From positions 1 to 34,271 of the forward strand of contig CAWKAR010000015.1 of assembly GCA_963847625.1 (NCBI GenBank): a stretch of 34,271 nucleotides of DNA, in the 5' to 3' direction. Below, in pieces: positions 5,642 to 31,459 of this stretch. A program made the translations under genes and the position numbers. The notes beneath the pieces were generated by a model that was not told the origin of the DNA, did no database searches, and saw only the letters and a program-made list of their open reading frames with translations. The stretch comes from a candidate division FCPU426 bacterium (GTDB lineage: Bacteria > Oederibacteriota > Muellerivitia > Muellerivitales > Muellerivitaceae). The stretch's first letter is position 1. Each line of letters opens with the position of its first letter.

Positions 5642-5706
5642 ACATTCTGAAAATTAACAGACGATTCCTAAAAAAGGAAATATTTTGATTTAAAGAGAGT
5701 TTTTAA

Positions 5707-13865: not shown

Positions 13866-13966
13866 CATCACCTTTTCCGGGTTTCGATCACCCGAAAGAT
13901 GCGAAACGGTTAAGTGGTTTTGCCGATTGGATGAAAATTAGTCGTGTCTGGCCAGGAGGAATTTAC

Positions 13967-15985: not shown

Positions 15986-16061
15986 GATCTTTTGGATCTT
16001 CTGATAACCCATCGCTTAATAAGCCTTGAAGATCAATCCGTTTATGACAGTGTGGACAAGT

Positions 16062-16092
16062 GTAGGGTAGGTCTCTTCGAATCCTACCCTAC
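16062..16092. terminator. Hairpin downstream of the GH cluster (terminator or GTAG-type REP-like element)
   Basis: GTAGGGTAGG (16062-16071) and CCTACCCTAC (16083-16092) form a perfect 10-bp stem with an 11-nt loop; a T-rich tract follows after a few bases. Confidence 0.5.
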
Positions 16093-16270
16093 TGCTGATT
16101 TTTATTAGAGGGATGCAAACTAAAAAGGTTGCGCGCGACCACATAGGAAGCTAATACTCACGCTAAATATTTTTCCCAATCGGCTTAATTAGGGGACTTT
16201 TGTTTTATTACAAAAGCGCTTAAGAACATTTAAAAACTTGCAATAAGTAGTTCATTTTTGGTAAAACTAA

Positions 16271-16380
16271 CAACCGTGTTTAGGTTGCAACTTTGCCACG
16301 GCTTTGCCACAGCGTTTTTAGGGATATAAAAATACAGAAAAGCCCTAATAAAACAATGATGTTATTAGTGGAGTGCAACC
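16271..16380. repeat. Recombination-site-like unit: CAACC-N7-GGTTGCA core, TTTGCCACGGCTTTGCCACA repeat, GAGTGCAACC half site
   Basis: CAACC gtgttta GGTTGCA at 16271-16289; repeat at 16292-16311; GAGTGCAACC at 16371-16380. Confidence 0.7.
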
Positions 16381-16458
16381 TATAAATTTTTAATTCTTTA
16401 TTTTAGGCCCGAAATTTAATTGTGGGTTTTGTGACAAGTCGCGAATTTTGCTGTAAAT

Positions 16459-16495
16459 GCGGGAATAACTCAGCGGTAGAGTGCAACCTTGCCAA
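16459..16495 (+). pseudogene. 5' half of tRNA-Gly(GCC), truncated at the end of the anticodon loop
   Basis: GCGGGAATAACTCAGCGGTAGAGTGCAACCTTGCCAA gives the acceptor 5' strand, D arm, anticodon 5' stem and loop with GCC. The following sequence (CGAGCAGCTCC..) cannot complete the stem, and I saw no 3' half in the window. Confidence 0.88.
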
Positions 16496-16597
16496 CGAGC
16501 AGCTCCTCGATCAGTTCTTTTCTGAAAAACCCCTATAAATAAACAAAAAAACTAATTTTTTTGCCCCGGCTTCCTGATCAAATGTCACTGGGGAAGG

Positions 16598-16790
16598 TGC
16601 CACAAAATGCCACAATATGACAGGGTGTGACACCAAGATTTTGCCACGGCTTTGCCACAAAATGCCGTGTTAGGATTTGGAATGCAACCCAGATATGGTT
16701 GCACTCTATCGGAATGTTTGAAATTTTTCAGTGATGGTGTGCCAGAAGTAAAAAGTGCCATTTTTGAACTTTGCCACTTTTTGTGGCAAA
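16598..16790. repeat. Recombination-site-like unit: core GAATGCAACC-N7-GGTTGCACTC with multiple TGCCAC arm-like repeats
   Basis: Core at 16680-16706 (spacer CAGATAT); TGCCACAAAATGCCACAA from 16598; TTTGCCACGGCTTTGCCACAA at 16640-16660; TTTGCCACTTTTTGTGGCAAA at 16770-16790. Confidence 0.75.
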
Positions 16791-17075
16791 GGCTCGTTTG
16801 GACTGGTGGTACTTGTGCCATATTTTTAACCGCGAAGACGGTTGAGCTTTCTTCAAATTTCCAATGATTTTAAAATCCAAATAACTTCTCTTAAATTCAA
16901 TGGTTTTTGGGTGAAACCATTAGCTTCAAGGGGTTATGCATAAAAGAATATTTGAATCATGATTTGTTTTATTGAAATTGAAGTGATTCGTTTGATCGTT
17001 TATTCAATTCCGCTAAAGCGCTAATGCTCAATGGACTTGAATAACAAGTGAATCTTACAAATGTAAATTCCAGCC

Positions 17076-17104
17076 TTGACAACCTACCTACCGGCAGGTA
17101 GAAT
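17076..17104 (+). promoter_or_regulatory. Sigma70-type promoter of tetR overlapped by a palindromic operator; likely leaderless transcript
   Basis: TTGACA (17076-17081), 17 bp, TAGAAT (17099-17104); ATG begins 7 nt after the -10. Operator CTACCTACCGGCAGGTAG at 17084-17101. Confidence 0.8.
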
Positions 17105-17110
17105 ATAGTC

Positions 17111-17713
17111 ATGGCAAAGAAAAAATCAACCCATTTAGAACAAGTTGAAAGAATAGTTTCGATTGCCCGCCGGTTGTTCGCCCAAAAGGGCGTTAATGAA
17201 ACCAGTTTGCAGGATATAGCCAAGGAATGCGGAATCCGCAAAGCATCCCTCTATTATCACTTTAAAAGTAAGGAAGAAATTCTAAAAAATATTTTCGATA
17301 GTGAGTTTAGGCGGAAGGAAACCGCTCTTAATTCCTTGGATTCCTCCAAGACTCTTGAGGAAATTTTGCAAGCGATAGGTTCCCATTTTTTTTCTGACTT
17401 TGAAAATGAAACCAATATTCAATTCATGAAAATATTGATCAGTGAAGGATTAAAGAATAGTAAGGCGAGTAAGCTTTTTTTCAATTTTTTCAAGGAACAG
17501 GGGGAAGACCCGATTTTAAAAAAGCTGAAGCCATTGCTGGCTGGAAAAGTGCCTGAAAAGCAAATGCAACTTTTTGTTTTTTGTTTTTTGGGGACGATCT
17601 TCAATTTCGCCATTCACACAAAGCTCATGAAACATGAACTGCCAGTTGAGGATGGTTTAAGTGCCGAAGAGTGTTTAAGGTTAGTTTGCCGAATTTTTAG
17701 CAAAGGTCTTTAG
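17111..17713 (+). CDS. TetR/AcrR family transcriptional regulator
   Basis: N-terminal HTH ARRLFAQKGVNETSLQDIAKECGIRKASLYYHFKSKEEIL; 200 aa; upstream of efflux genes. Confidence 0.95.
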   Translation: MAKKKSTHLEQVERIVSIARRLFAQKGVNETSLQDIAKECGIRKASLYYHFKSKEEILKNIFDSEFRRKETALNSLDSSKTLEEILQAIGSHFFSDFENETNIQFMKILISEGLKNSKASKLFFNFFKEQGEDPILKKLKPLLAGKVPEKQMQLFVFCFLGTIFNFAIHTKLMKHELPVEDGLSAEECLRLVCRIFSKGL

Positions 17714-17729
17714 TTTTTTTGATGTTGTA

Positions 17730-17751
17730 ACCTACCTGTCGGTAGGTAGGT
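17730..17751. promoter_or_regulatory. Second TetR operator immediately upstream of the TolC-family RBS
   Basis: ACCTACCTGTCGGTAGGTAGGT has palindromic arms and matches the reverse complement of the 17082-17101 operator; GAGGAGG follows at 17752-17758. Confidence 0.8.
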
Positions 17752-17763
17752 GAGGAGGAATCT

Positions 17764-19227
17764 ATGAAAAAATTTACATTAACGATTTCTCTTATTGGGA
17801 TCCTTCTGCCGGTTTCAGGCTGGGGAGAGACGCTTACGCTTTTGGATTATTTGCACCAAGTGCAAACACGGGGGCCGGATTACCTTTCGTTTAAAGCCTC
17901 AGCGGAAGGGTTGAAAGGACAAGCCCATCAACTGGACCTGACATATTCACCGATTTTAACTGCCGGGTACAACCACTTGGACGACAACGAATCCCCCGAA
18001 AACATCCAAGCTATGCCTCATACACTATCCGACTCCGCAGGGGCTTCCATCACCACGAAATTTCCATTCGGCCCCTCCCTCACGTTGGGTTATTCCTTCG
18101 TCAATACGAACATGGAATTCAACGAACTTTATAGTGCGCTGGGAAATTCCTTAAACCTGCCCGACTCCTATTACCAAACCGCCCCTACATTGTCCCTTTC
18201 CATTCCCCTTTTGAAAGATTTCGGCGGAAGTCAAACCAGAGCGGAAGTCCACAAGTCCCAATACCAGTTTGAGTCATCCTCCGAAACCGAATTTTTCCAG
18301 ATGGAGCAGGCGCTCTACAAAGCCAAAGTGGCGTACTGGAACCTGACCCTGGCCCGAGTGGAGGTGGCGATCTGGCAGGATACCCTGGAACGGAACCGAA
18401 AAATTTGGAACTGGACCCAGAAGCGGCTGGCGCGCCAACTCGCGGACGAGACCGATGATTTGCAGGCCGAAATGGCGGTTCGGCGGGCCGAATTGAATTT
18501 GCGGAAGGCCCAGGAGGACGAACGCTCCGCACGATTCGAATTCAATAAATATCGAAACGTGGAGTCGGGGGACGTTCCGGAAATTTTGGAGACTTTGGAG
18601 AATTCCTTGGTCCAAATCGAAGTGGACATTCCCGATGATCCGCCGGAAAGGCTGGACTTAAAGGCAGAGGAAATGAGGGCCGAGCAGCAAAAAGCCGTAT
18701 ATGACTACGCCAAGCAGGACATATATCCCGATTTGACGCTCAAGGCTTCGTGGTGCGGTAACGGCTATGACCCGGATTTTGGGTCGGCCAACCAAACCTC
18801 ATTCAGGAATAACTATCCTTCCTACAGTATCGGCGCCCAATTTAGCCTTTCCCTGGACGTGTTCACCGCCTCCCAGGTGGCGGAGGGTTACTGGCGCTGT
18901 TATGAAAGCTCCTTCTTGACCCTGAAAAACAAGCAGATCGAAGTCGCCCAACAATGGGCGGACTTGAAGGAAAAACTTCTGGACGTGGATGAACAGCTGG
19001 CCATGTCAACCCGAATTGAAAAGCTCCAAAAAAGGAACGCCGAAGAACAAAAGGAGGAATTAGCGCAGGGGCGCACGACCCAATACCAATTATTGTCGTG
19101 CGAGAACGATTATTCGCTTTCCCGATTGGATCGAATACGCCTGATCCAGGAAAAGTTGACGCTTCTCGCCGAGGCACAGTGGTGGCTCTCGGGGGTTGAT
19201 CCGAACGGGAAAGGAGACGCGAAATGA
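17764..19227 (+). CDS. TolC-family outer membrane efflux protein
   Basis: Signal peptide; 487 aa with twice-repeated OEP-like pattern (LSLSIPLLKDFG..KVAYWNL; YPDLTL..FSLSL..GRTTQYQLL); ATGA overlap with the RND gene. Confidence 0.85.
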   Translation: MKKFTLTISLIGILLPVSGWGETLTLLDYLHQVQTRGPDYLSFKASAEGLKGQAHQLDLTYSPILTAGYNHLDDNESPENIQAMPHTLSDSAGASITTKFPFGPSLTLGYSFVNTNMEFNELYSALGNSLNLPDSYYQTAPTLSLSIPLLKDFGGSQTRAEVHKSQYQFESSSETEFFQMEQALYKAKVAYWNLTLARVEVAIWQDTLERNRKIWNWTQKRLARQLADETDDLQAEMAVRRAELNLRKAQEDERSARFEFNKYRNVESGDVPEILETLENSLVQIEVDIPDDPPERLDLKAEEMRAEQQKAVYDYAKQDIYPDLTLKASWCGNGYDPDFGSANQTSFRNNYPSYSIGAQFSLSLDVFTASQVAEGYWRCYESSFLTLKNKQIEVAQQWADLKEKLLDVDEQLAMSTRIEKLQKRNAEEQKEELAQGRTTQYQLLSCENDYSLSRLDRIRLIQEKLTLLAEAQWWLSGVDPNGKGDAK

Positions 19228-22200
19228 ACCTGCCCAAACTCTCTATCGAAAGGCCTGTATTCGTATCGAGCATCCTGGTCCTTATCCTGATCCTGGGATT
19301 GGTCTCTTACCGGAAGCTGGGTGTGGAACAGTTCCCGGATATCAATTACCCTGTCATCTCCGTGACCACAACGTACAGGGGGGTAGGGCCGGAGGAGATA
19401 GAGGATCTAGTGACCAAGCCCCTGGAGGAGGAACTCTCAGGGCTGGCTGGAATCAAAAAAATCACCTCCAACAGTGTCGAGGGAACTTCCCAGGTGGTGG
19501 TGGAATTCACCCTGGAGACCGATACCGACTGGGCGGAGCGGCACGTTCAGGACAAGGTTAATCAAGCTCGTTCCAAGCTTCCGACGGATGCCGACCTCCC
19601 CGTCGTCCGGAGGTTCGATCCATCCGATAGCCCGATCGCCATCCTAAGTTACCGCTCTGAGCTGCCTAATAGCCAAGCCTATGACGTGGCAGATCAATAC
19701 CTGAAGCCCAGGCTGTCCCAGGTCCCGGGAGTGGCGGTTGTTGATATTTACGGGGCCACCAAACGCGAGATCTGGGTGGAACTGGACCGTGACAAGCTCT
19801 ATGCCCACCGGTTGACGCTTGGCCAGGTCGCGTCAAAGATCGGCAACAACGGATCCAATACCGCCGTCGGAAAGGTCCATTTGGGGCCGCAGGACTTGAT
19901 TTTTAGGGTGCTTGGGGAATACCGGGACATGGACCGGCTCCGGCAGACGGTGGTGAATTTCAACGGGTCCGACGTGGCGGTTCCCTTGAGTAGCTTGGGG
20001 AACGTCCGGGACACGGTTCAGGACCCGACGAGCCGGGTCTTCGACAACGGCCAACCCTCCGTCTTCCTCCAAGTTTATCGGCAGACCAAGGCCAACGTCG
20101 TCCAGACGGTGGATGGCATCGAGCGGGTGCTTCCGAAGATCAACCAGGAACTCCAGGCGCATGACCCGGGTGCGAGCGTGGCCTTGGTTTATAATACGGC
20201 CCGCAGCACCAAGGAAACCTTAGCAGACGCCAAGGGAACGATCCTGCTAGCCATCGTCCTGACGGTTCTCGTGGTCTACCTGTTCCTGGGAAGTTTCCGC
20301 TCGACCATCATCACCATAACCGCCCTCCCCGTGTCGCTCTCCGGGGCCTTCATCCTCATGAAATTGATGGGATTCACCCTGAACGTCATCAGCCTCCTCG
20401 CCCTTTCCATGGCGGTGGGGCTTCTGGTCGATGACGCCATCGTGGTCCGCGAGAACATTTGGCGCCGGGTGGAGGAAGGCGAAGAACCGGTTCAGGCGGC
20501 CGAAAAAGGGACTTTGCAGGTGGCGATGGCCGTGGTGGCGACCACCAGCGTGGTCATTGCGGTATTCCTGCCCATCGGATTTCTTTCCGGGTTCTCGGGC
20601 GAGATATTCCGCCAGCTTGGTTTGACAGTCTGTTTCGCGATGGCCGTATCGCTTTTCGAGTCCATGACGATGGGACCCATGCTCTCAGCCTATTGGGTCA
20701 AGCGGGGGAGCGCGCATGGCCGTAAACCGGACGGGAGGAGGGGTGGGAGTGGACTGTTGGCCATTTTCGGGCGATTCCAGGACGGGCTGGTTGACCGTTA
20801 CGGACACGTGATGGACTGGTGCCTATGCCACCGATGGAAGGTAATCGGAGCGGCACTGATCGTCACCCTCCTCAGCCTTGGCCTGATGCCCTTCATCCCG
20901 ATGAACTTCATGTCTAATTCAGACACCGGCGAGTTTGAAGTGGCGCTCAAGGCAAAACCGGGTACTTCCCTGGAGGGAATGACTGACTGGGCACTGAAGG
21001 TCGAGGGGATTATCCGCAAACACCCGGAAGTGGCCTTGATCACGACCACGGTGGGTGGGGAGAATGGGTCGTCCAATACGGGACAGATGTACATCCGGTT
21101 AGTGGACCGCCAACGGCGCAAGTTAACCACCAGCGATTTCAAAGAGTTGATGCGGGCGGAACTGAAGCCATACGAGGTAACGCTCCAACCTGAGATCGGG
21201 GACGTTAATCCCGCTGGCGGGAGCGAATCGCCTTTCAATTTGGTGTTGGAAGGGCCGGATTTCGAGAAGGTCGTCGGCCTCGCCGGTCAAGTGATGGAAA
21301 CACTTAAATCGGTGAAGGGGCTGACCGACCTGCGGATGGACTACGAGGGAGGCGAGCCGGAATTCCAGGTCAAGACGGATCCGGTGCGCATGAAGTTGTT
21401 TGGGGTTTCGGCGGCCCAAGTAGGACAGGAACTGCGCGACCAGGTGGAGGGGGCGAAGCCCGCCAAGTTCCGGGAGAACGGGCTGGAATACGATATCCGG
21501 GTCCGGTTATTGGAACCCCAAAGGAATATTCAGGCCAATTTCACGCGGATCATGGTGCCGAACCAAAACGGAAACTTGGTCCGGTTGTCCGATGTGGCCT
21601 CGCCGATCACCGTGGAGGGACCCTCAAAGATCGACCGGCATAACCGCGTCCGGTCCGTCATGATCTCCGGGCAATTGGCAAAGGGAGGGGCCATCGGCAA
21701 TGTGACCGCGGATGTCAAAAAGCTACTGGCGGGCTTTACCTTTCCCTTGGGTTACCGTTATTCGTTCGAGGGGCACACCGAGGACCTCCAGGACTTAATC
21801 GGGAATATCCTGACGGCCATCGGGTTGGCCTTGGTGTTGACCTACTTAGTTTTGGCCAGCCTTTACGAGTCACCTGTGACGCCCTTCACTATCATGCTGG
21901 CGATTCCACTGGCGATGGCCGGAGCCCTGACTGCGCTTTTCTTGACCCATACCCAGTTGGACCTTTTCAGCATGATCGGCATAGTGATGCTGTTCGGGCT
22001 TGTGACGAAAAATTCCATCCTTCTGGTGGACTATACCTTGCAACTCCAGCGCAGGGGAATGCCCCGACGGGAGGCGTTGATCCAGGCGGGCCGGGTGCGC
22101 TTGAGGCCTATCCTTATGACGACCATCGCCATTATCGCCGGGATGTTGCCGGTTGCCATGGCGCTTTCTGAAACCGGAAGGTTCCGGCAATCTATGGGCG

Positions 22201-22319
22201 TGGCTGTGGTGGGAGGCATCATCAGCTCGTTATTCTTGACCTTGCTGGTAGTGCCATCGGCCTACGGCATCATCGACGACGTCCGGCTCTGGTTCCGGCG
22301 GGTCTTACGGATGGATTAA
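19224..22319 (+). CDS. RND efflux transporter permease (AcrB/AcrD/AcrF family)
   Basis: 1031 aa; SIERPVFV, EQFPDI, GLLVDDAIVVRENI, VTKNSILLVD, RLRPILMTT, GGIISS motifs. Confidence 0.96.
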   Translation: MNLPKLSIERPVFVSSILVLILILGLVSYRKLGVEQFPDINYPVISVTTTYRGVGPEEIEDLVTKPLEEELSGLAGIKKITSNSVEGTSQVVVEFTLETDTDWAERHVQDKVNQARSKLPTDADLPVVRRFDPSDSPIAILSYRSELPNSQAYDVADQYLKPRLSQVPGVAVVDIYGATKREIWVELDRDKLYAHRLTLGQVASKIGNNGSNTAVGKVHLGPQDLIFRVLGEYRDMDRLRQTVVNFNGSDVAVPLSSLGNVRDTVQDPTSRVFDNGQPSVFLQVYRQTKANVVQTVDGIERVLPKINQELQAHDPGASVALVYNTARSTKETLADAKGTILLAIVLTVLVVYLFLGSFRSTIITITALPVSLSGAFILMKLMGFTLNVISLLALSMAVGLLVDDAIVVRENIWRRVEEGEEPVQAAEKGTLQVAMAVVATTSVVIAVFLPIGFLSGFSGEIFRQLGLTVCFAMAVSLFESMTMGPMLSAYWVKRGSAHGRKPDGRRGGSGLLAIFGRFQDGLVDRYGHVMDWCLCHRWKVIGAALIVTLLSLGLMPFIPMNFMSNSDTGEFEVALKAKPGTSLEGMTDWALKVEGIIRKHPEVALITTTVGGENGSSNTGQMYIRLVDRQRRKLTTSDFKELMRAELKPYEVTLQPEIGDVNPAGGSESPFNLVLEGPDFEKVVGLAGQVMETLKSVKGLTDLRMDYEGGEPEFQVKTDPVRMKLFGVSAAQVGQELRDQVEGAKPAKFRENGLEYDIRVRLLEPQRNIQANFTRIMVPNQNGNLVRLSDVASPITVEGPSKIDRHNRVRSVMISGQLAKGGAIGNVTADVKKLLAGFTFPLGYRYSFEGHTEDLQDLIGNILTAIGLALVLTYLVLASLYESPVTPFTIMLAIPLAMAGALTALFLTHTQLDLFSMIGIVMLFGLVTKNSILLVDYTLQLQRRGMPRREALIQAGRVRLRPILMTTIAIIAGMLPVAMALSETGRFRQSMGVAVVGGIISSLFLTLLVVPSAYGIIDDVRLWFRRVLRMD

Positions 22320-22393
22320 GGCAATATATATCCCGGACTGAAGACCACTTTGGATTATAAAATCTCAGTATTATTTGATTGTTCTTGTTAGGG

Positions 22394-22497
22394 GAGTGCA
22401 ACCGTGATCAGGTTGCACTCGTCTCTCTAAGCGATTCTTTTTCCTGCACTTTTTGTATTTTTTTTTAAAAAACTTCTTGTGGCAAAGCCGTGGCAAA
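22394..22497. repeat. Recombination-site-like unit: perfect GAGTGCAACC-N7-GGTTGCACTC core plus inverted copy of the TTTGCCAC repeat
   Basis: GAGTGCAACC gtgatca GGTTGCACTC at 22394-22420. TTGTGGCAAAGCCGTGGCAAA (22477-22497) is the exact reverse complement of 16640-16660. Confidence 0.8.
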
Positions 22498-22536
22498 TAA
22501 ATTTTAAAAATATTCTTCCGCTTTTTTCCGCTTTAA

Positions 22537-22565
22537 TTGCCCCTTCCAAAAATCCATCCTAGAAT
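22537..22565 (+). promoter_or_regulatory. Putative sigma70 promoter of the coupling-protein operon
   Basis: TTGCCC (22537-22542), 17 bp, TAGAAT (22560-22565); ATG at 22575 with no SD sequence. Confidence 0.5.
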
Positions 22566-22574
22566 TACCGCACC

Positions 22575-24440
22575 ATGTCCTTTTTCAAAACCGTCGAGAA
22601 GCACACGCCAACTGTATTGGTCGGATTTGCCGTCTATTCTGGCGTTAAATTCATCCTGGAAGTCCTGGGAGTCCTATCCCCATCGGTTACCCCCTTTGAC
22701 ACTCTTTCGGCTCTTTCTGTCGGTTTCCTCTTCATGTTTGAGAAGCATGTCCACATGGATCACCTTCTGGCTTTTGCCCCGGCAGTCATCGCCCTGGCTT
22801 TTTTTCATGACTTTTTCGGGGTGTTCCTGGGGAACGAAGGGTTCACTGGGGACGTGGTGATGGGGCTTTCCATCCTGATTGGCTTCTGCATTTATTTCAT
22901 CCATTTTTACATGAGGCACACCACGGAACACCAGGGCGAGTCGCCCCGGCACGAAGGGGGTAAGAATTCCCTGTACCTGGACGCAGAAAACAAATATTTC
23001 ATTCCAGATGAACTCCTCAAATACCACACGGAAGTGATCGGATCTTCAGGAATGGGGAAGACCAACATCTTCAACCACTTGATCGAGCAGGGGATCAGGA
23101 ACGGCCTGGGAATGTTCGTTTTCGACGCCAAATCCAATTACAACAAGCACATCCCCTATTACGCCCAAAAATATGGACGTCTCCACGATTTAAAGTATTT
23201 CGATTTGGCTGACATAAAACGAAGCCAGACCTACAACCCCGACTTCAAGGACAAGCCGGACGAAGTTTTTAACGGCCTAATGAAGTCGATTTTTTATGGG
23301 CCTGTGACCCAGGAATTTTATCGGGACCAGGCCAGCGATGTATTGAGTAACCTGACCAATCTACTTTTCATGGAGTTCAAGCACGTTACCCGGATGGATT
23401 ACCAGAACCTGATATCCAACGAGATCAGGTCTTTTGACACAATCAAAGTATTGGCTAAGAAACATGAGGACACCGTCTCGGGAAAATACTTTTTGGAGAA
23501 GTGGGTCAATATGTCGGAGAAGGACCGGGAATTGAACCTTTCGGGCCTGACTAGCAAACTTGCTCGGTTCACAAATAGGGAATGGTCACCTCTTATCAAT
23601 ACCCTGAACCCAGATATCAAGATGAAGGACGTGGTTGAGAAACAACAGATATTCCTATTTGGGACCTCTTCCCTGGTGAACCAGGAAGACTCTAAACCGG
23701 TCATTATTTCGGCCCTAATAGACCTGGCGGGGGTAATAGGGAGGCGGCTAATTGAGAAGCCGGAAAGACCCTTTTTCGTGTTTTTGGACGAGTTCTATAC
23801 CGCTGCATATCCCGGCCTAAACGACCTTATTTCCCTTGGTCGGGAAGCCAATGTTTGCTTCTTCCTGGCCCATCACAGTCTGGGCCAACTGGGGGCAGTC
23901 AGCCAGGAATTCAAGGACGATATCCTTACCAACACTAATCACAAGATCGTGATGAACATCACCGAAAAAGACACAGTGGATTTTTTTGCCGCCATATTCG
24001 GAACCAAAGTCACCATGAAGGACGTTTTATCTTATGACACGCGAGTACCCCAACCCAGGGGGAAGACCGTGAAACCGGATGAGGAATTCATCATCCATCC
24101 CAATTATTTAAGGGGAATGAAACGTGGGGAAGCGGTATGCAGAATCGTCTATGTCTCAGGGCCGAAAGTTTTCAAGATGAAGCTTAAGGAAGTCAAACCT
24201 CCACCCCGAGAATTTGATTATGTGGGCTGTGTTCCTATAAGGGATAACCACAAAAAATCAAATCAATACAACAAAATCGATTTACCAAAAGTCGAGACAC
24301 CCTCGAAAACGATCCCTAAAAATGTTGAAGCAAAAAAACCGCCCAAAGAAATCCAGAAAGAAGAACCTAAAACTGACGCGGAATTATTATCCAAGGGGGA
24401 GGTTTATTCTAAAAAACTAGGGAAAGGAGAAGTTCATTGA
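22575..24440 (+). CDS. Type IV coupling protein (VirD4/TraD/TrwB-like ATPase) with N-terminal transmembrane helices
   Basis: Hydrophobic N-terminus; HTEVIGSSGMGKT (Walker A), FVFDAK, YNP, FVFLDEF (Walker B), GREANV..HHSLGQL, IHPNYLRGMKRGEA. Confidence 0.85.
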   Translation: MSFFKTVEKHTPTVLVGFAVYSGVKFILEVLGVLSPSVTPFDTLSALSVGFLFMFEKHVHMDHLLAFAPAVIALAFFHDFFGVFLGNEGFTGDVVMGLSILIGFCIYFIHFYMRHTTEHQGESPRHEGGKNSLYLDAENKYFIPDELLKYHTEVIGSSGMGKTNIFNHLIEQGIRNGLGMFVFDAKSNYNKHIPYYAQKYGRLHDLKYFDLADIKRSQTYNPDFKDKPDEVFNGLMKSIFYGPVTQEFYRDQASDVLSNLTNLLFMEFKHVTRMDYQNLISNEIRSFDTIKVLAKKHEDTVSGKYFLEKWVNMSEKDRELNLSGLTSKLARFTNREWSPLINTLNPDIKMKDVVEKQQIFLFGTSSLVNQEDSKPVIISALIDLAGVIGRRLIEKPERPFFVFLDEFYTAAYPGLNDLISLGREANVCFFLAHHSLGQLGAVSQEFKDDILTNTNHKIVMNITEKDTVDFFAAIFGTKVTMKDVLSYDTRVPQPRGKTVKPDEEFIIHPNYLRGMKRGEAVCRIVYVSGPKVFKMKLKEVKPPPREFDYVGCVPIRDNHKKSNQYNKIDLPKVETPSKTIPKNVEAKKPPKEIQKEEPKTDAELLSKGEVYSKKLGKGEVH

Positions 24441-25246
24441 GGGGCCTGAAAGAAATGACTGGAATTGAAATTGAACACCTGGCATGGATTCATTCCAATA
24501 AATTTACAACTCCAGAATTGTTTCATCTGAAGTTCCTTCCTAATCAGAGTTCCAGGAACGCCTACAAAATCCTAAAAAAATACACCAGCTTGGAAAGAGA
24601 CCTTTTACACGTTTTTAAGACACCAGTGGGAAACAGTAACCTTTTTTTCTTAACTGCGGGGGCTTTAAGAACGTTGGATGAAAATAACAAAATTTTAGTG
24701 AGATCCAACAAGTATCCAATCAAGATCAACACTCATGAAAAAGAGCACGACCTAATGGTTCAGACAGTCCGAATAACATTCGAATCTTTGGATGAACTTA
24801 GGGATATTTTTTGGGTTTCAGATTTTGAGATGCGGTCAGGAATTACACCTTCAATTAAGGCGGAATACCTGGAAGGGAAGCTGAATAAGGAAAGATGGCG
24901 CTCTAATGGGGCCAATCCAAATCCAAAAGGAAGAAGAACACCTGATGGATATTTTGAGGCAGACATTGAAGGTCGAAGAGTCTCTTTTACACTTGAACTT
25001 GAGAACCATCATTACAACGACACTATTCTTCAAAGAATGATCGATAATTTAAAGAATGGCTTTCCTCGTGCCCTCAAACTAATCGTTTCCGCCACTCCTG
25101 GAAATGCGGTCCGGATGATCCGTTCCCTTCAAACTAGGATTAAACCCGACGAACAGCAACAATGGTTCGTTTCCGATTTTGAGAGGGTAACCACCAAACC
25201 GTTTAAAAAATGCTGGCACCAATTGAATAAACCATTGGCGGATTAG
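24437..25246 (+). CDS. Replication-relaxation (Replic_Relax)-like protein: winged helix + PD-(D/E)XK-like domain
   Basis: Overlaps the coupling-protein stop; wHTH-like N-terminus (..FFLTAGAL), EHDL, RTPDGYF, LELE motifs typical of this family. Confidence 0.7.
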   Translation: MRGLKEMTGIEIEHLAWIHSNKFTTPELFHLKFLPNQSSRNAYKILKKYTSLERDLLHVFKTPVGNSNLFFLTAGALRTLDENNKILVRSNKYPIKINTHEKEHDLMVQTVRITFESLDELRDIFWVSDFEMRSGITPSIKAEYLEGKLNKERWRSNGANPNPKGRRTPDGYFEADIEGRRVSFTLELENHHYNDTILQRMIDNLKNGFPRALKLIVSATPGNAVRMIRSLQTRIKPDEQQQWFVSDFERVTTKPFKKCWHQLNKPLAD

Positions 25247-25268
25247 TCGAAATATCGAAAAACGGCCC

Positions 25269-25309
25269 TTGAAATAGTGTCAACCATAGGCGACAATGAA
25301 AAGGAGAGG
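25269..25309 (+). promoter_or_regulatory. Toxin-antitoxin promoter with overlapping imperfect palindromic operator
   Basis: TTGAAA (25269-25274), 17 bp, GACAAT (25292-25297); TGTCAACCATAGGCGACA at 25278-25295; AAGGAGAGG RBS at 25301-25309. Confidence 0.6.
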
Positions 25310-25312
25310 TAA

Positions 25313-25663
25313 TTGGAAACAACACCTTTTGAATTAAAGGATTATGAAACACCGGATGGGCGGTGTCCTTACCAGGAATGGTATTCGGAGTTAATTAAAA
25401 AAGACCTAAGGTCTGCAACCGCTTTAGAAAATAGGGTTAGGCGGTTAGAAAATGGCTTGCTTGGGGATTATGACGACGTTCAGGACGGTATCCTTGAACT
25501 CAGAATTCATGTAGGCCAAGGTTTTCGCATATATGTCCGTAGGATTGGTAGAACCATGATGCTTTTGCTTTCCGGCGGGGAAAAGAAAACCCAGGACCAA
25601 GATGTTAAAAAAGCCAAGGAATATTGGAACGAATTTAAAAGTAGAAATAAAGGAGTAAAGTAA
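25313..25663 (+). CDS. Type II TA toxin, RelE/ParE superfamily (addiction module killer protein type)
   Basis: YETPDGRCPYQEW..RVRRLENGLLGD..GILELRIHVGQGFRIY..LLLSGGEKKTQDQDVKKAKEYW; TTG start with strong RBS. Confidence 0.9.
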   Translation: METTPFELKDYETPDGRCPYQEWYSELIKKDLRSATALENRVRRLENGLLGDYDDVQDGILELRIHVGQGFRIYVRRIGRTMMLLLSGGEKKTQDQDVKKAKEYWNEFKSRNKGVK

Positions 25664-25962
25664 TGAAAGGCATTAGAGACCATAAATCAGCGATCATTGA
25701 ACATTTAAAAACCAATGAGAACTTCCGAAAAGCTTACCTAAATGAAGCCCTTAACGAGGATGAACCTGCGGTTGTTCTTTCTATGCTTCGCGACATCGTA
25801 GATGCGACTAGGGGGTTCACAAAACTTGCAAAAGAAACAGGCTTGGCTAGGCAAAGTCTTTATAAAGTCTTGTCTGAAAAAGGGAATCCTGAATTTGGAA
25901 GTGTTTGGAAGATCGTCCGCATATTGCGGAAAAAGAATCAAGCTTTGGTGAATGCTCGGTAA
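25663..25962 (+). CDS. Type II TA antitoxin (HTH, addiction module antidote type)
   Basis: AYLNEAL..LRDIVDATRGFTKLAKETGLARQSLYKVLSEKGNPEF; TAATG overlap with the toxin (toxin-first order). Confidence 0.9.
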   Translation: MKGIRDHKSAIIEHLKTNENFRKAYLNEALNEDEPAVVLSMLRDIVDATRGFTKLAKETGLARQSLYKVLSEKGNPEFGSVWKIVRILRKKNQALVNAR

Positions 25963-28085
25963 AATTTCATTTACCACCGTGTGGAAGGCTTTCTAAAATG
26001 TTTTGAGCCGAAGGATTGCTCGGATCGTTTTTCAAGACACGTTCCAAGCATAGTCTGGCTTCGTCGTACCGTTTAGCTAAGTAATAAAAGACGCCGAGTT
26101 TGTAGTAAAGGTCGAAATATTTCCCGCCTGATAGATTTAATGCTTCCAAGAAAAATGCCTCGGCAGTTTGAGGATGGTTTTCCAATAAAAAAAAAGTCCC
26201 CATATTTGAAATCCCGATGGGATAATTCGCCCGCGTGTAAAAACCCATCAATAAAAAATCCCATATAGTGGGTTCGGGAAGTTTGATGAATTCAGTTGCC
26301 CTTTCCAGGACCTGATTCTGGATATTGTATTCGGCCATAATTCTGGAATCGTCAAGGGTCGGTACTTGAGGCGCATAACCTTTTTTCAAATAAATTACGG
26401 TATTCTCATCCAAGTAAACCGGTCGCCAATCACTGTTATTTTGGAGATCAGCGACCCAACTCGTGGATATAGCTGGATTGAAAAATAGAATATTTGCGGA
26501 ATTTTGGTCCGCCAAGGATGTTATTTTTCCTGTGTACTGGGCTGAAATGTATTCTGTGAATAGTTTCTCGCCCATTACCTCCAGACGGCCATCGATAAAT
26601 ACCTTTTGAGGACCTTTCCAGTCCAACCAGCCTCCCGGATTCAAAGCATTTAATATCCTTCCATCTAAATGGTTTTGAATAAGGAAATCCGTGGCCCGAA
26701 CGGGTTGACTTTCATCGTTCACCCCAAGGCCGAAGCGTTCGGTTCGGCGGTCGTCCACATAATAGGCGTTTGTGATAACCCGCAAACCTAGACCCGAAAG
26801 TAGAGTTATTAGGATCAACGCAACCCATGATCTGGATAGAATCCCTTCTGTTATTTTGCGTAACCATGCCCATTCCAGGTCCTTCAAACAAGCGGCCGTA
26901 ATGGGCAGGCAAATGAGGATGAAAAGCGGAATGTTCCGTACGGCGTTTGCGGATAAATAAAAGAAAATGGCGACCAGGAAAAACTCGTGAATTTTCCGTT
27001 TCTTCCAGGTGATCAAGATCAAAAACAATAAAAGGAAACTGAATAGCTTACAACCCCATAACTGGGCAACCGGCATAATGGGAATGTCGTAATGGACCCA
27101 AGGGGACATGAATTCATTTATATTTGAATGGAAAAGTTTAGTGTGAAGTGTCTGCCAAAGTTGGAACGGGAATAATATCCCTCGGAAAAAATATGGGTTT
27201 AACAGGCATAAAACCATAGCCAGGCCCGAAAACCGCACCAACTTCGAATCTGCCCGGCGTTGATGGAAGATACCAGAAACCAAAAAACCAACCATCAATC
27301 CCCAACCCAGGATAAATAAACCTTCCATGTTGGCCCAAACAACCTGGAGGATTGGAAGAAGGAATAGAAAATCCCTTTTCCGGGCCGTTCTTTGCTCCAA
27401 TGTCCAAAGCATAACACTCATAAGCAACCAACTAATGATTTCGGGCCGGACCTGGAAACGAATTTCACATTCCCATATAGCCCATGCAAACAATAGTGTG
27501 GATATCCATGTAGGCGCACCGGTCAATCGAAGACGTGCCCATAGAAATGAAAAGACCGCGATTATTAAAACAACATTAAATAATGTAAGTAGCGGATAGC
27601 TGCCGGAAATAAAGAGCAGGTAAAGAACGACTTGATAAAGCCAATGGCCATCAACATAATCGTGATCGGGAACTGTGTAGGTGAAGGTATCCTTTGCGGG
27701 GAAACTATGATTTTGAAGTATCCACTGGCCACTCCTTAGGTGAAAACCCAAATCCAAGTCTTGAATGGTATGTGCGCTTAATAGGGCCAGTAGGAGGAAA
27801 CAAGAAATAAGTGCCCAGGACCAAGGATTAATAAAAAAAGATCGGATTGAGGCCGAAAGAGGACGGGTTTGTAGGGAAGATTGAGTTGACATTAGGTGGA
27901 TTATAACAAACGTTCCATATTTCAAATGGAGAAGAGATATTGAACTAGGGAGACCAAACAACAACCTTCTAAAAGCCCGATTTAAATCCATCTATTATCG
28001 ATATCGGGTCAATTTGAAAGAACATGTTATGATTTTGGGGATTAAAAAAGAATCAACCTTTGGTTCACGCTCGGTAAAATTCCAT
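25930..28085 (+). repeat. 41-bp imperfect direct repeat (25930-25970 and 28045-28085) flanking the membrane/TPR gene
   Basis: AAAAAGAATCAAGCTTTGGTGAATGCTCGGTAAAATTTCAT versus AAAAAGAATCAACCTTTGGTTCACGCTCGGTAAAATTCCAT, 36/41 identical. Confidence 0.85.
25967..27892 (-). CDS. Multi-pass membrane protein with C-terminal TPR (possible GT-C-fold glycosyltransferase-like)
   Basis: DLGFHLRSGQWI..DTFTYT..WLYQV, RPE, WANME, LLNPY, KVFIDGRLEV motifs; many TM segments; TPR-like C-terminus. Start moved from 27991 to ATG 27892 because a TGnTATAAT extended -10 lies 7 nt upstream. Confidence 0.75.
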   Translation of the reverse strand: MSTQSSLQTRPLSASIRSFFINPWSWALISCFLLLALLSAHTIQDLDLGFHLRSGQWILQNHSFPAKDTFTYTVPDHDYVDGHWLYQVVLYLLFISGSYPLLTLFNVVLIIAVFSFLWARLRLTGAPTWISTLLFAWAIWECEIRFQVRPEIISWLLMSVMLWTLEQRTARKRDFLFLLPILQVVWANMEGLFILGWGLMVGFLVSGIFHQRRADSKLVRFSGLAMVLCLLNPYFFRGILFPFQLWQTLHTKLFHSNINEFMSPWVHYDIPIMPVAQLWGCKLFSFLLLFLILITWKKRKIHEFFLVAIFFYLSANAVRNIPLFILICLPITAACLKDLEWAWLRKITEGILSRSWVALILITLLSGLGLRVITNAYYVDDRRTERFGLGVNDESQPVRATDFLIQNHLDGRILNALNPGGWLDWKGPQKVFIDGRLEVMGEKLFTEYISAQYTGKITSLADQNSANILFFNPAISTSWVADLQNNSDWRPVYLDENTVIYLKKGYAPQVPTLDDSRIMAEYNIQNQVLERATEFIKLPEPTIWDFLLMGFYTRANYPIGISNMGTFFLLENHPQTAEAFFLEALNLSGGKYFDLYYKLGVFYYLAKRYDEARLCLERVLKNDPSNPSAQNILESLPHGGK

Positions 28086-28153
28086 AAGAGGGTTAGGAAG
28101 CCTAAATATGTTGCTATTTCGATATAGCGTTTAACCCGTGAAACCGAATTTTA

Positions 28154-28335
28154 CTTGCCTATACGGAAAGCGCATCTTAAGTTGGATTCTACTGGTGCAC
28201 TCATGACACAAGTCTCCCCCTCTGAAAGAGGGGGAATAAGGGGAAGTTAGCCTTTTATCAACGACAAATACCCCCCCACCCCCCTTTTCAAAGGGGGGCA
28301 AAGAATTCGTGAGATGCACTTTCCGTATAGGCATG
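28154..28335. mobile_element. 182-bp MITE with 24-bp terminal inverted repeats and 8-bp target-site duplication
   Basis: Left CTTGCCTATACGGAAAGCGCATCT; right end reverse complement CATGCCTATACGGAAAGTGCATCT (22/24). GAATTTTA directly repeated at 28146-28153 and 28336-28343. Confidence 0.85.
28215..28298. repeat. Inverted pair of REP-like GC hairpins inside the MITE
   Basis: TCCCCCTCT-GAA-AGAGGGGGA (28215-28235) and CCCCCCTTT-TC-AAAGGGGGG (28279-28298), with G-rich/C-rich tails facing each other. Confidence 0.7.
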
Positions 28336-28415
28336 GAATTTTAATATAGACAATGAATATTCATTGATGTATTAACCGTAGTGATTTTCATCACTTTTAT
28401 TTTGGTGGTTTTCAA

Positions 28416-28625
28416 ATGGACGAATTCATATTTGAACACGCACCTACAGGAAAAAGATCAAAAATTAAGGCAAATAACTCAGATATAGCCATGATCCTTT
28501 GTTTCCAGATAAATGGCTGGTTACCAGGTGAAATCCTTTATCTTGGTCGTGCTTCCACTGTCGAAAACCTCTCCTTTTTAAAATACAGAGACGAACTCCA
28601 TTACATCCCCGGTGGTCGTTTCTAA
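28416..28625 (+). CDS. Small hypothetical protein (69 aa)
   Basis: ATG ORF with GGTGG upstream and protein-like composition; no recognised motif. Confidence 0.45.
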   Translation: MDEFIFEHAPTGKRSKIKANNSDIAMILCFQINGWLPGEILYLGRASTVENLSFLKYRDELHYIPGGRF

Positions 28626-28848
28626 AAAATTGCCTAAATTCGGGGAATCTTTTTTTTCAAGAAAGATACCCTTTTGAAGCGTAAAAACAGGAGAAGTAAT
28701 ATAATTAGATGACAAATTAAGTTGGGATCATTAGGGCCAACCTCAGTAACTGATAAATCCATAAAAAAATATAACGAGACGGGGAATAAAACCGCGCATA
28801 CCACCACTATATAGCAGAGATAAAGTCGTTTCTGTTTGGAGGCCACTC

Positions 28849-29943
28849 ATGGGAATCAAGAATTTTTGGACAGCGGGAATTTTATTAATAGTGTTTGTCT
28901 TGCCATTGGCTTGCCAACGTTACCTTCCTACCGCACCCAAACCAAAGGGAATAACCACACCCAATGGTGGTGTGGTATCGACTATTGCGGGGTCTGTTAG
29001 TGCGTTCGCTAACGGAACGGGAACTGGTGCAGCTTTCAATTGGCCCGCTGGTATAGCTGTCGATGCCTCTGATAATTTGTACATCGCAGATGCTGGCAAT
29101 CAATTAATCCGGTTAATAACAACCGGAGCCGTGGTTTCGACTATAGCTGGTCAAGTTGGGGTTACTGGTTCTATGAACGCAACTGGAACTTCAGCATCTT
29201 TCTTTGATCCAAGCGGAGTCGCCGTTGATACCTCGGGAAATATATACGTTGCGGATTACGCCAACTCACTTATTCGTAAAATCACATCGGGTGGCGTGGT
29301 TTCGACCCTGGCGGGTCAAGTTGGGGTTACAGGAGCTACTAATGCGACGGGGACTTCTGCGTCATTTAATTATCCTGAAGGAGTCGCGGTGGACACCTCT
29401 GGAAATGTATATGTCGCTGACACTGGTAATAATCTGATCCGGGTTATCTCTCCGGGGGGTGTTGTGTCAACTTTGGCGGGACAGGCTGGTGTTACAGGTG
29501 CCACTAACGCAACGGGCACTTCAGCATCTTTCAATAATCCCTATGGGGTTGCGGTTGACACTTCCGGAAATGTGTACGTCGCGGACACTGGTAATAATTT
29601 GATCCGGGTTATCACCTCAGGGGGTGTTGTGTCAACTTTGGCGGGATCAGGATCAGTTGGTTCGGCCAATGGAACAGGATCAGCTGCGTCGTTTAATAAT
29701 CCTTATGGGGTCGCTGTTGACTCTTCCGGAAATGTATACGTCGCGGACACTTACAATAATCTAATCCGGAAAGTAACTCTTGGGGGCGTTGTTACTACTT
29801 TGGCTGGATCAGGATCCATAGGGTCCGCAAATGGCACGGGAACGGCAGCTTCATTCTTTGCTCCTAATGGAGTCGCTGTTGACGTTTCCGGTGTTGTTTT
29901 CGTTGCAGATAGCGGCAACTACATAATCCGAGAAATTCAATAG
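28849..29943 (+). CDS. NHL-repeat beta-propeller lipoprotein
   Basis: GGAGG RBS; lipobox-like LPLAC; six repeats of FNxPxGVAVDxSGNVYVADTGNNLIRxI..VSTLAG. Confidence 0.9.
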   Translation: MGIKNFWTAGILLIVFVLPLACQRYLPTAPKPKGITTPNGGVVSTIAGSVSAFANGTGTGAAFNWPAGIAVDASDNLYIADAGNQLIRLITTGAVVSTIAGQVGVTGSMNATGTSASFFDPSGVAVDTSGNIYVADYANSLIRKITSGGVVSTLAGQVGVTGATNATGTSASFNYPEGVAVDTSGNVYVADTGNNLIRVISPGGVVSTLAGQAGVTGATNATGTSASFNNPYGVAVDTSGNVYVADTGNNLIRVITSGGVVSTLAGSGSVGSANGTGSAASFNNPYGVAVDSSGNVYVADTYNNLIRKVTLGGVVTTLAGSGSIGSANGTGTAASFFAPNGVAVDVSGVVFVADSGNYIIREIQ

Positions 29944-30345
29944 TTATGTTTTAAGGTGTTTAAGATATTTAATCGTGAAACAGGTAACATTATTAATCCG
30001 ATAACTTTTAACAAATACTCTTCCGCCGTAAAACTGCACGATAATTGACTTTTTTGCTTTATTGCGTGTAAAACATTCTGCCTAAATTGCACTTATTATG
30101 GCTATTTTTATTTTTTTCGAAAAATTAAACGGTTAACTCAAGTCATAATTTGCTCCTCCATAACAATCCGTAATAATTACTAGAAGAATGTTCCTTTTTT
30201 ATTTATTAAAAATAGAAACGTTAAAACTAAATTTTCCTTTTTTGTTTTGATTTTATTTTTTTAAGGACTAGTATTTTTCCCTGGCAGTATCTTTTTCAGC
30301 AACGTCTGACATTTGTAAGTTGATTTATAGTGGTTGGAGGCAGTG

Positions 30346-31413
30346 ATGCGCAGAGATTATTATTTTTTTATTTCTGTTTTTTCACTCATAACATTTTTTG
30401 GTTTAAGCTCTTTAGCTTATTGTCAAAATAGTGGCGCGGTATCCACTCTTGCGGGGTCGGCAGGGGTTAGTGCTTTTGCGGACGGAACAGGGAACGCCGC
30501 TGCATTTAATTGGCCCTTTGAATTAACGGTCGATTCGTCCAGTAATATTTACATTGCTGATTCCGGCAATCAAATAATCCGGAAAATTACTTCTGGGGTC
30601 GTGGTTACCACTTTTGCAGGCCAAGTCGGAATTATAGGTTCAACCAACGGAACGGGAACTGCCGCTTCCTTCTTTAACCCTTCAGGAATCTCCTTCGATT
30701 CGGCCGGAAATATTTATGTAGCGGACACGCTCAACAATCTGATTAGAGAAATTACCCCTGGTGGTGTAGTGACAACCCTGGCAGGGTCGGCGGGTGTCAC
30801 GGGTTCAACCAATGGGACTGGATCAGCCGCTTCTTTTAATAACCCTTATGGAGTTGCCGTTGATTCTAACGGCAATGTCTACGTCGCGGACACTCTCAAC
30901 AATCTGATTAGGGAAATTACCCCTGGTGGTGTAGTGACAACCCTGGCAGGGTCGGCGGGTGTCACGGGTTCAACCAATGGGACTGGATCAGCTGCTTCTT
31001 TTAATAACCCTTATGGAGTTGCCGTTGATTCTAACGGCAATGTCTACGTCGCGGACACTGGAAATAACCTTATACGGGAAATTGCCCCAGGGGGTGTTGT
31101 GTCTACTCTGGTGGGGTCTGGGTCTGCTGGATCATCCAATGGGACGGGAATTGCAGCGTCGTTTAATGGACCTTATGGAGTCGCGGTTGGTACTTCCGGA
31201 AATGTATATGTCGCGGACACATTCAACAATCTGATACGGGAAATTGCCCCAGGGGGTGTAGTGACAACCCTGGCGGGGTCCGGATCTATAGGTTCAGCAG
31301 ATGGAACTGGATCCGCGGCGTCATTCTTTTCTCCGAACGGAATCTCGGTTGACGCTTCCGGAAATGTGTACGTTGCGGATAGTGGTAATTACATCATAAG
31401 GATCATTCAATAA
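30346..31413 (+). CDS. Secreted NHL-repeat beta-propeller protein (paralog of 28849-29943)
   Basis: GGAGG at 30336-30340 favours ATG 30346; signal peptide; six NHL repeats; same C-terminus (ADSGNYIIRxIQ) as the paralog. Confidence 0.9.
   Translation: MRRDYYFFISVFSLITFFGLSSLAYCQNSGAVSTLAGSAGVSAFADGTGNAAAFNWPFELTVDSSSNIYIADSGNQIIRKITSGVVVTTFAGQVGIIGSTNGTGTAASFFNPSGISFDSAGNIYVADTLNNLIREITPGGVVTTLAGSAGVTGSTNGTGSAASFNNPYGVAVDSNGNVYVADTLNNLIREITPGGVVTTLAGSAGVTGSTNGTGSAASFNNPYGVAVDSNGNVYVADTGNNLIREIAPGGVVSTLVGSGSAGSSNGTGIAASFNGPYGVAVGTSGNVYVADTFNNLIREIAPGGVVTTLAGSGSIGSADGTGSAASFFSPNGISVDASGNVYVADSGNYIIRIIQ
30721..31050 (+). repeat. Tandem 165-bp (55-aa) NHL blade duplication
   Basis: 30721-30885 and 30886-31050 encode the same peptide and differ at 3 synonymous positions. 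Confidence 0.9.
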
Positions 31414-31459
31414 TTTATTTTCCTGTTTCATTGGTTTTTATTGGTAGGAGGACTCGTTT

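Follow-up and report, generated by a model that had tools for sequence, protein, structure and literature searches.

The window analysed here, a stretch of 34,271 nucleotides taken at its full length, is contig C15 of the genome of a candidate division FCPU426 bacterium (G000, a 4.43 Mb assembly in 63 contigs). Its short inverted repeats are real joints between pieces of mobile DNA inside a split tRNA-Gly gene, and they are most likely cut by the integrase of a conjugative element. We think it likely that integrative and conjugative elements (ICEs), together with integrase-less passengers, have accumulated in tandem at tRNA-Gly, through an isolated integrase subfamily that probably tolerates mismatched overlaps. 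This resembles the accretion of cis-mobilizable elements (CIMEs) rather than the work of a dedicated cassette machine. A literature search, with most subscription papers outside its reach, returned no description of this element family.

Core sites, arm doublets and a displaced tRNA half

The sites in the window are real and non-random: the motif TGCAACC-N7-GGTTGCA, with up to two mismatches, occurs three times against 0.17 expected, and none of 100 shuffles reaches three. Each core site is the anticodon stem of tRNA-Gly(GCC) carrying an exchanged loop. Junction 1 (16269..16289) reads AACAACC, spacer GTGTTTA, GGTTGCA, its left core being degenerate (two mismatches). Junction 2 (16680..16706) and junction 3 (22394..22420) are core pairs around CAGATAT and GTGATCA, the latter forming the left terminus of an ICE that we call ICE-a. 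Between the first two lie, on the plus strand, a half site GAGTGCAACC (16371-16380) with the 7-mer TATAAAT and no right core (16371..16387), and a displaced, attL-like 5' half of tRNA-Gly(GCC) (16459..16495) made up of 16459-16488 and the loop TTGCCAA (16489-16495). A preliminary description of this DNA had placed these sites, the half site and the tRNA half correctly, and had noted that every spacer differs, as all five junction 7-mers do (GTGTTTA, TATAAAT, TTGCCAA, CAGATAT and GTGATCA). Its spacer length of exactly 7 bp holds for the window sites, but 6 or 8 bp were found at 6 of the 28 junctions tabulated below.

The piece from 16458 to 16495 is 100% identical to the intact tRNA-Gly gene on contig C19, and ARAGORN reports no whole tRNA in the window. 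Upstream, also on the plus strand, stands a promoter-like motif of the tRNA-Gly(GCC) gene (16229..16268; TTGCAA, 18 bp, TAAAACT). Conservation suggests its function: the motif also precedes an unoccupied intact tRNA-Gly in G009, G011, G022, G026 and G030 (5 of 13 family loci). It is not among the predictions of a promoter scanner run on the window. G000 holds a second copy of promoter and 5' tRNA half on C29.

The cores are accompanied by arm doublets TTTGCCACGGCTTTGCCACA, in which TGCCAC recurs with a period of 11, and the doublets belong to the same system as the cores. In the window they lie at 16292, at 16640 and, on the minus strand, at 22479-22497, where the doublet of the ICE left end is directed at junction 3. 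Across G000, 14 distinct paired core sites were found with up to one mismatch per half; nine stand in island contexts (C14, C15, C19, C29 and C32) and five look like chance. The doublet scan of the same genome gave 14 hits, 11 of which have a core or half core no more than 110 bp away, and a further hit on C16 sits beside a degenerate core; its pattern missed some doublets found later in a wider comparison. Among 61 related genomes surveyed, three contain the exact core motif. An exact core in G026 shows no DNA similarity to the G000 islands, and none of eight viral-contig matches to the core pattern carries arm doublets.

Junction 1 opens a 98-bp mini-unit (16283..16380, plus strand) composed of a core half, an arm doublet (16292-16311) and an A-type end terminating in GGAGTGCAACC. 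Its alignments with the ICE left end and with the integrase-side end on C14 each score higher than all 500 shuffles, and it is probably an internally deleted element. Units of 31, 51, 74 and 98 bp, each bounded by two core halves, occur in arrays. From its end at 16380, 78 bp separate the mini-unit from the tRNA half. The sequence past the half site was rejected as part of an empty site for this unit, aligning unconvincingly with the C29 and G001 leaders.

Two further observations concern these sites. A 294-base contig of run X2 matches window 16225-16313 (promoter motif, site 1 and arm doublet) with zero differences, its first 122 and last 83 bases lying outside the match. A second cluster of cores, arms and PIN-type toxin-antitoxin genes is present at C29 57050-60050 (L070 9050-12050) and in G001 at C7 52001-58000 (L125). 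This cluster adjoins what reads by eye as a disrupted tRNA, and lies upstream of a 675-aa gene and what we take to be an smpB-like gene.

The integrase and ICE segments shared by two species

There are 18 PF00589 matches in G000, two of which are directly followed by an arm doublet and a tRNA-Gly 5' half. On C19, integrase, arm and 5' half run into the genome's only intact tRNA-Gly(GCC) (by ARAGORN), which the 5' half completes; this integrase lies just upstream of the tRNA. The preliminary description had proposed a search for just this, a tyrosine integrase next to an intact tRNA-Gly(GCC) that has these flanking motifs. On C14, the integrase is followed by an arm doublet, a 5' tRNA half, the conserved B unit described below, three more cores, about 2 kb of cargo and a fifth core, after which comes a coupling-protein gene 96% identical to that of the window. 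The order on both contigs indicates that the element is situated upstream of the tRNA, whose 5' half it provides. The arrangement is that of a tRNA-targeting island, with an integrase beside an intact tRNA and a displaced 5' half upstream in the same orientation. Links between the window, C14 and C19 span assembly gaps, and the C14-C19 link is drawn solely from common architecture. The genome G025 holds both ends of one island on a single contig (C2), whereas the ends in G000 and G001 are split over contigs.

ICE-a begins in the window (22404..34271, plus strand) and, on the inferred scaffold, continues past it to mating-pore genes, an integrase, an arm doublet and a 5' tRNA half (G000:C14, G001:C16). 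Its window part encodes, all on the plus strand, a type IV coupling protein (22575..24440), a probable MOB-C-type relaxase (24437..25246; a weak NCBIfam MobC match, E 2e-4, below cut-off, with no Pfam match) and a toxin-antitoxin-like pair (25313..25962; Gp49-like toxin and HI1420-like antidote). Genes for a TraG P-loop ATPase and VirB6-like proteins stand beside the integrase, as annotated on the G025 copy. Integrase, coupling protein, weak MobC-type relaxase and mating-pore genes make up the gene set of an ICE, joined across contigs by inferred linkage.

Evidence on what the cores are comes from G001, another species of the same genus whose syntenic chromosome is ~79-87% identical to that of G000. 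Over 7,225 bp, the G001 contig C6 shows four differences from window 22397-29620 (99.945% identity). The match starts exactly at 22397, at the TGCAACC/GTGATCA core, and the left flanks are unrelated. On the left side of this core, G001 carries a promoter and a 5' tRNA half, then a B unit (86% identical), a core of 8 bp, a mini-unit of 31 bp, a core of 6 bp and finally a Cas12b block; the G000 position syntenic with this left end is on C32. The end of G001:C16 matches window 31265-34271 at 99.97% identity and runs through mating-pore genes to a C14-type integrase, ~54 kb from the core on the inferred scaffold. A free circular form of C14 was considered and rejected, since G001:C16 runs on into the ICE of the window. 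At the far end, C19 154712-158795 matches G001:C3 without mismatch, and all 95 mismatches of the alignment lie downstream of the tRNA. The near-identity of these segments in the two species implies transfer, and we read them as two tandem ICEs apparently shared recently between the species, bounded on the left by the GTGATCA core and on the right by the tRNA.

Related loci agree on where the element ends. Among 14 close coupling-protein loci, five have a core and an arm 164-303 bp upstream, and eight of the nine without this pair start directly downstream of what reads by eye as the 3' end of a tRNA. Sister ICEs thus end at the same position relative to the coupling gene, so the core marks the ICE terminus. 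The sites are the ends of elements belonging to a tyrosine-integrase system keyed to the tRNA-Gly anticodon arm, as first proposed. Two parts of that proposal are not supported: the supposed cassette starting at 22411 is a full ICE end, and in place of a free-standing, trans-acting recombinase the agent is most likely the integrase of the abutting ICE.

The integrase has the catalytic features of three-domain (lambda/Tn916-type) tyrosine recombinases: it matches PF00589 above cut-off, and R251, K288, R360, H383 and Y392 are invariant in eight aligned sequences. At position 357 of the alignment (A1), the first His of the H-x-x-R motif is a Tyr in all eight. The two G000 integrases are 55-57% identical. 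A structural model (mean pLDDT 79.7) places three strands and a helix at residues 4-67 (pLDDT 52-80), a predicted N-terminal arm-binding domain, and the arm doublets lie beside cores. Fold matches cover mostly residues 75-411. The best is Tn1549 Int (Z 19.6, root-mean-square deviation 3.7, 286 residues aligned, sequence identity ~18%), followed at small differences by lambda Int (Z 18.2) and the integron integrase entry 2a3v (Z 17.1). A profile search against sequences of solved structures gave weak matches to XerA and XerH only.

Judged by sequence similarity, the integrase is an isolated subfamily. Only 12 proteins were found at E<=1e-20, and its profile reaches three clusters at E<=1e-30 among 1.84 billion representatives, the next lying at 1e-18. 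In a survey of 31 family genomes, strong matches occur in three and the arm doublet in four, three of these four having the cognate integrase; a search of genome_contigs with the integrase alignment gave one locus. It does not belong to the Tn916 family proper, since the cores are a tRNA anticodon stem and the integrase sequence is not Tn916-like. The integron integrase IntI (TIGR02249) is above cut-off in none of four genomes, the control genomes likewise giving nothing above it, so that the search had no positive control; P0003 and P0004 have no match to TIGR02249.

Three side observations bear on the integrase and its relatives. On G019:C54, locus L123 4330-9330 comprises a B unit, three degenerate cores, what reads by eye as a 3' fragment resembling tRNA-Cys, and four open reading frames, with an armed end as its last part. 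The backbone of this ICE is found with other integrases and at other tRNA genes (G000 C3, C36 and C52; L176-L187), so that the integrase module is exchangeable within the ICE family. Three adjacent tyrosine recombinase genes at G000:C20 38768-42101 are presumably a RIT-like trio.

Spacer variation, the B unit and integrase-less cargo

It is generally held that integrases acting at tRNA anticodons depend on a 7-bp overlap that matches. To our knowledge, the known mismatch-tolerant integrases are of low specificity or not targeted to tRNA. In this context, the spacers of the present sites are informative. We tabulated 28 hand-picked junctions from G000 and its relatives, counting shared ones once, and all 28 spacers differ (22 of 7 bp, five of 6 bp and one of 8 bp). 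The two junctions of ICE-a show the difference in overlap that marks Tn916/CTnDOT-type elements, with GTGATCA on the left and TTGCCAA on the right of the inferred scaffold. Moreover, three B-unit ends with 0-1 differences per 60 bp have the spacers CTTTATA, CTTCGCA and CTCCACA, which differ at 2-3 of 7 positions, and their right flanks are unrelated. Drift at the rate of the flanks would give such differences with binomial P of 1e-4, 1e-3 and 0.02. Near-identical ends with different spacers and different partners point to recombination that tolerates heterology. These ends agree with the earlier claim that spacer homology would not be needed. The last base of the spacer is A in 20 of 28, a count whose P value we do not trust, since the orientation was chosen and the sites are hand-picked and related. 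One 6-bp spacer is inverted between homologous flanks, GGGAAG in G001:C6 (L029 11819-11838) and CTTCCC in L082 (~1830-1849).

The 194 bp between tRNA half and site 2 form the B unit (16496..16689, plus strand). This conserved segment is non-coding; it contains an A/T tract, arm repeats at 16598-16613 and at 16640-16659 and the sequence GACAGGGTGTGAC, and its last part is the core half GAATGCAACC. The window copy is 59-86% identical to seven others (in G000, G001, G019, G025 and the metagenome locus L082, the one locus that a metagenome search with the B-unit pattern returned). Every full-length copy compared ends in arms and a core, and TTGCCAA precedes all eight. B units also occur with a non-tRNA left half, in G019 and L082, and CATAGAA precedes the start of one truncated B unit. 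Downstream the cargo varies, with efflux genes, Cas12b, a Fic gene or an insertion sequence. The B unit may be a landing pad or act as P' arm in a lambda-like attP. As the B unit intervenes, together with the tRNA half and the 78 bp beside it, the 98-bp unit and the efflux unit are not the abutting units that they were taken to be.

The efflux unit (16697..22403, plus strand; Pfam, NCBIfam) is a passenger without an integrase. It consists of a left end with single arm-like repeats (16769-16791), found near this end only, then a TetR-family regulator (17111..17713), an outer membrane efflux protein (OEP; 17764..19227) and an AcrB-family RND permease (19224..22319), all on the plus strand, and a bare right half-site 75 bp past the last stop. 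Between its two cores there are only these three genes, as in a CIME, and by this analogy the unit fits a CIME-like passenger in a tandem built by accretion. The unit is an extra paralog of a family-wide efflux gene, with a host-like GC content of 0.54. No near-identical copy was found in G001 or G025, and the unit lies outside the segment common to G000 and G001 in the sole transfer seen. Its slot in G001 is occupied by the Cas12b-Cas4/Cas1-array block. The latter, seen between two cores at L029 12341-19880 (G001:C6 309341-316880), is a type V-B-like CRISPR block with Cas12b above cut-off, a Cas4/Cas1 fusion and a repeat array.

Do such units move as cassettes? In four genomes and one metagenome locus, a small sampling, no cargo unit was found twice with the same two ends; integron-style stacking is an analogy only. 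The breakpoint at GTGATCA against G001 is exact, as predicted for gene-content differences between relatives, but others fall off the sites. G001:C7 and G000:C32 share, at 96% identity, a GH2 block that stops ~170 bp and 1.3 kb before reaching the nearest cores, and a 1.5-kb indel in the C14 inter-core unit (C14 against G001:C16) lies 43 bp off a core. Two runs from a single peat study contain parts of the efflux unit without mismatch. Circle joints, including the suggested one from 22403 to 16697, were absent from three peat metagenome contig sets, also of one study, compared with window 15500-29700; these sets cover small shares of that stretch (0.10, 0.07 and 0.00), so the missing joints are no evidence of absence. 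The same sets have no cover over 24980-27823 while efflux pieces match exactly, which is a hint only.

The sites also differ in shape from those of integrons, which use IntI and folded single-strand attC sites. Such attC sites are long imperfect palindromes with extrahelical bases; by inspection, with no attC model run, the sites here are palindromes of 19-27 bp around 6-8 bp.

The rest of the window carries other genes. To the left of site 1, at 11091-15985, lie GH31 and GH39 genes with PA14 domains. A search of 30 family genomes at E<=1e-60 did not recover the GH39 gene, so the window's left side, too, may be island cargo. Very large open reading frames (1827, 1755 and 937+ aa) lie in 158-10974 and 31460-34271; they contain strongly skewed repeats of low complexity and have many paralogs, and those of 1827 and 1755 aa have no Pfam match.

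Proposed mechanism, alternatives and related systems

We propose that the window is the left side of a composite island in a tRNA-Gly(GCC) gene. The repeats would be core-type binding sites of the ICE-encoded three-domain tyrosine integrase, whose home target would be the anticodon stem-loop, and the TGCCAC doublets would be its arm-type sites. Because the element carries the tRNA 5' half at its integrase end, the tRNA gene would be rebuilt on integration. The integrase may swap strands across non-matching overlaps of 6-8 bp, like those of Tn916/Tn1549 and CTnDOT, and perhaps a terminal A:T pair suffices. Heteroduplexes at the junctions would segregate after insertion, and only cells keeping TTGCCAA at the right junction would retain a working tRNA. 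Selection for an intact anticodon loop would fix TTGCCAA on the right, so that the element's own spacer ends up on the left junction. Repeated arrival, decay and partial excision could then leave stacked ICEs, mini-remnants with arms and passengers lacking an integrase (the efflux unit here and Cas12b in G001), the stack sitting between the displaced 5' half and the rebuilt tRNA.

Several points weigh against this proposal. No recombination event was observed, and tolerance of heterology is read from a comparison of end products. The B unit is unexplained, having TTGCCAA as a constant neighbour, as a lambda-type P' arm would, and it did not co-transfer with ICE-a (86% against 99.9% identity). 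The GTGATCA shared by both species fits homology-dependent exchange equally well. Tn1549 Int is ahead of lambda Int by a margin of ~1.4 Z, too small for the fold to settle the mechanism. G019, a 99% complete genome, has arms, a B unit and cores, and the cognate integrase was not found there. Finally, reconstruction of an empty site for the 98-bp unit failed, with 123 of 500 and 12 of 500 shuffles scoring as high.

The alternative that survives best, although we consider it unlikely, is a dedicated integron-like cassette system, in which the B unit is an attI-like platform and the ICE integrase is the cassette recombinase. Units beginning GGTTGCA and ending GAGTGCAACC would excise as circles and insert serially whatever their spacer. 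Such a system would account for a B unit conserved across three genera and a metagenome contig with arms and a core at its end, for the different cargo that follows it, and for bare GGAGTGCAACC halves lying often just past a stop codon, as after the RND gene. Arrays of 31-98-bp units are hard to obtain by decay alone, and the exact efflux pieces in two peat runs also speak for mobility of this kind. Against it stand the lack of any cargo unit at two places with the same two ends, the off-core breakpoints of the GH2 block and the 1.5-kb indel, and the absence of an integron integrase above cut-off in all four genomes. In addition, the units are heterogeneous, some armed and some not, and chance also produces GAGTGCAACC halves (G000 has 17, and shuffled words give a median of 6). 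A variant that we hold equally doubtful treats the B unit as a ~190-bp landing pad where the ICE integrase would load and swap recombinase-less cargo circles (efflux, Cas12b, toxin-antitoxin, Fic) independently of homology. It is just as tentative that this would be an integron analogue made from double-stranded att sites, with the tRNA loop kept by selection and not by overlap homology.

An ordinary lambda-type, homology-dependent ICE at tRNA-Gly is improbable. The B unit would be its P' arm, with attL at TTGCCAA, and the other cores would be secondary or decayed att sites whose spacers drifted once unused. The constant TTGCCAA before full-length B copies, the identity of GTGATCA in G000 and G001, a mutation-like series of spacers (GTGATCA, GTTATCA, GTGTTTA, GAGTTTA) and the nearly tied fold match to lambda Int are all in its favour. 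However, the 99.9%-identical segment begins at the GTGATCA core and not at TTGCCAA, the B-end spacers vary far more than the adjacent 60 bp, and spacers of 6 and 8 bp exist, one 6-bp spacer being inverted between homologous flanks. That the palindromes are transcription-factor operators or RNA hairpins is hardly tenable: operators often take the form of inverted repeats with a variable spacer, and site 2 is 400 bp away from a TetR gene, but the exact motif, far from the scatter expected of a regulator's site, is confined to 3 of the 61 genomes, clusters at island junctions by arm doublets, coincides with a horizontal-transfer breakpoint and is the anticodon arm of the integrase-adjacent tRNA.

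Accretion by an overlap-tolerant ICE integrase, our preferred explanation, has partial precedents. Tn916 and Tn1549 share the tyrosine integrase, inverted ends and a variable crossover region, which in Tn1549 spans 5-7 nt with a need for single-base homology; they insert at many A/T-rich sites (consensus TTTT-n6-AAAA) (PMC5871717; PMC5812530). Here, in contrast, a G+C-rich anticodon stem of a tRNA serves as core, and half of the tRNA is part of the element. CTnDOT, a Bacteroides element with GTANNTTT cores, likewise has core-type and arm-type sites, and IntDOT tolerates mismatches in its 7-bp overlap if 1-2 bp match at the first cleavage; a tRNA target and stacked passengers are not described in the accessible parts of these sources (PMC2817482; PMC5812530).

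CIME-ICE composites (ICESt1/ICESt3; the S. agalactiae tRNA-Lys composite) come closest in architecture, with stacked integrase-less remnants bearing att sites beside an ICE, alternative left ends (attL') and co-transfer; the examples given lie at the 3' end of the target gene (PMC5704250; PMC5812530). Here the element supplies the 5' tRNA half, and every internal junction has a different overlap. Islands with a displaced 5' fragment (159 of 3,919 in Islander) share the anticodon-centred attachment site and the gene restored by the island, but there the tRNA fragment marks the island end (PMC4383910), whereas an internal, non-matching core bounds the segment that the two species share here. Acinetobacter pdif modules (PMC13141974) and, from general knowledge, integrons also carry recombinase-less cargo between short two-part sites with variable spacers. 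In the available part of that source, pdif recombination is seen solely between identical or near-identical spacers, by host XerCD.

The present integrase subfamily appears to unite a fixed tRNA target with free overlaps. The 28 natural spacers are ready substrates for asking how much overlap homology a tyrosine recombinase needs, and a site-specific, overlap-tolerant integrase could serve the serial stacking of DNA. In these bacteria, a fixed target with free overlaps would let ICEs and their passengers, such as Cas12b and the efflux pump, stack at one locus and be exchanged between species.

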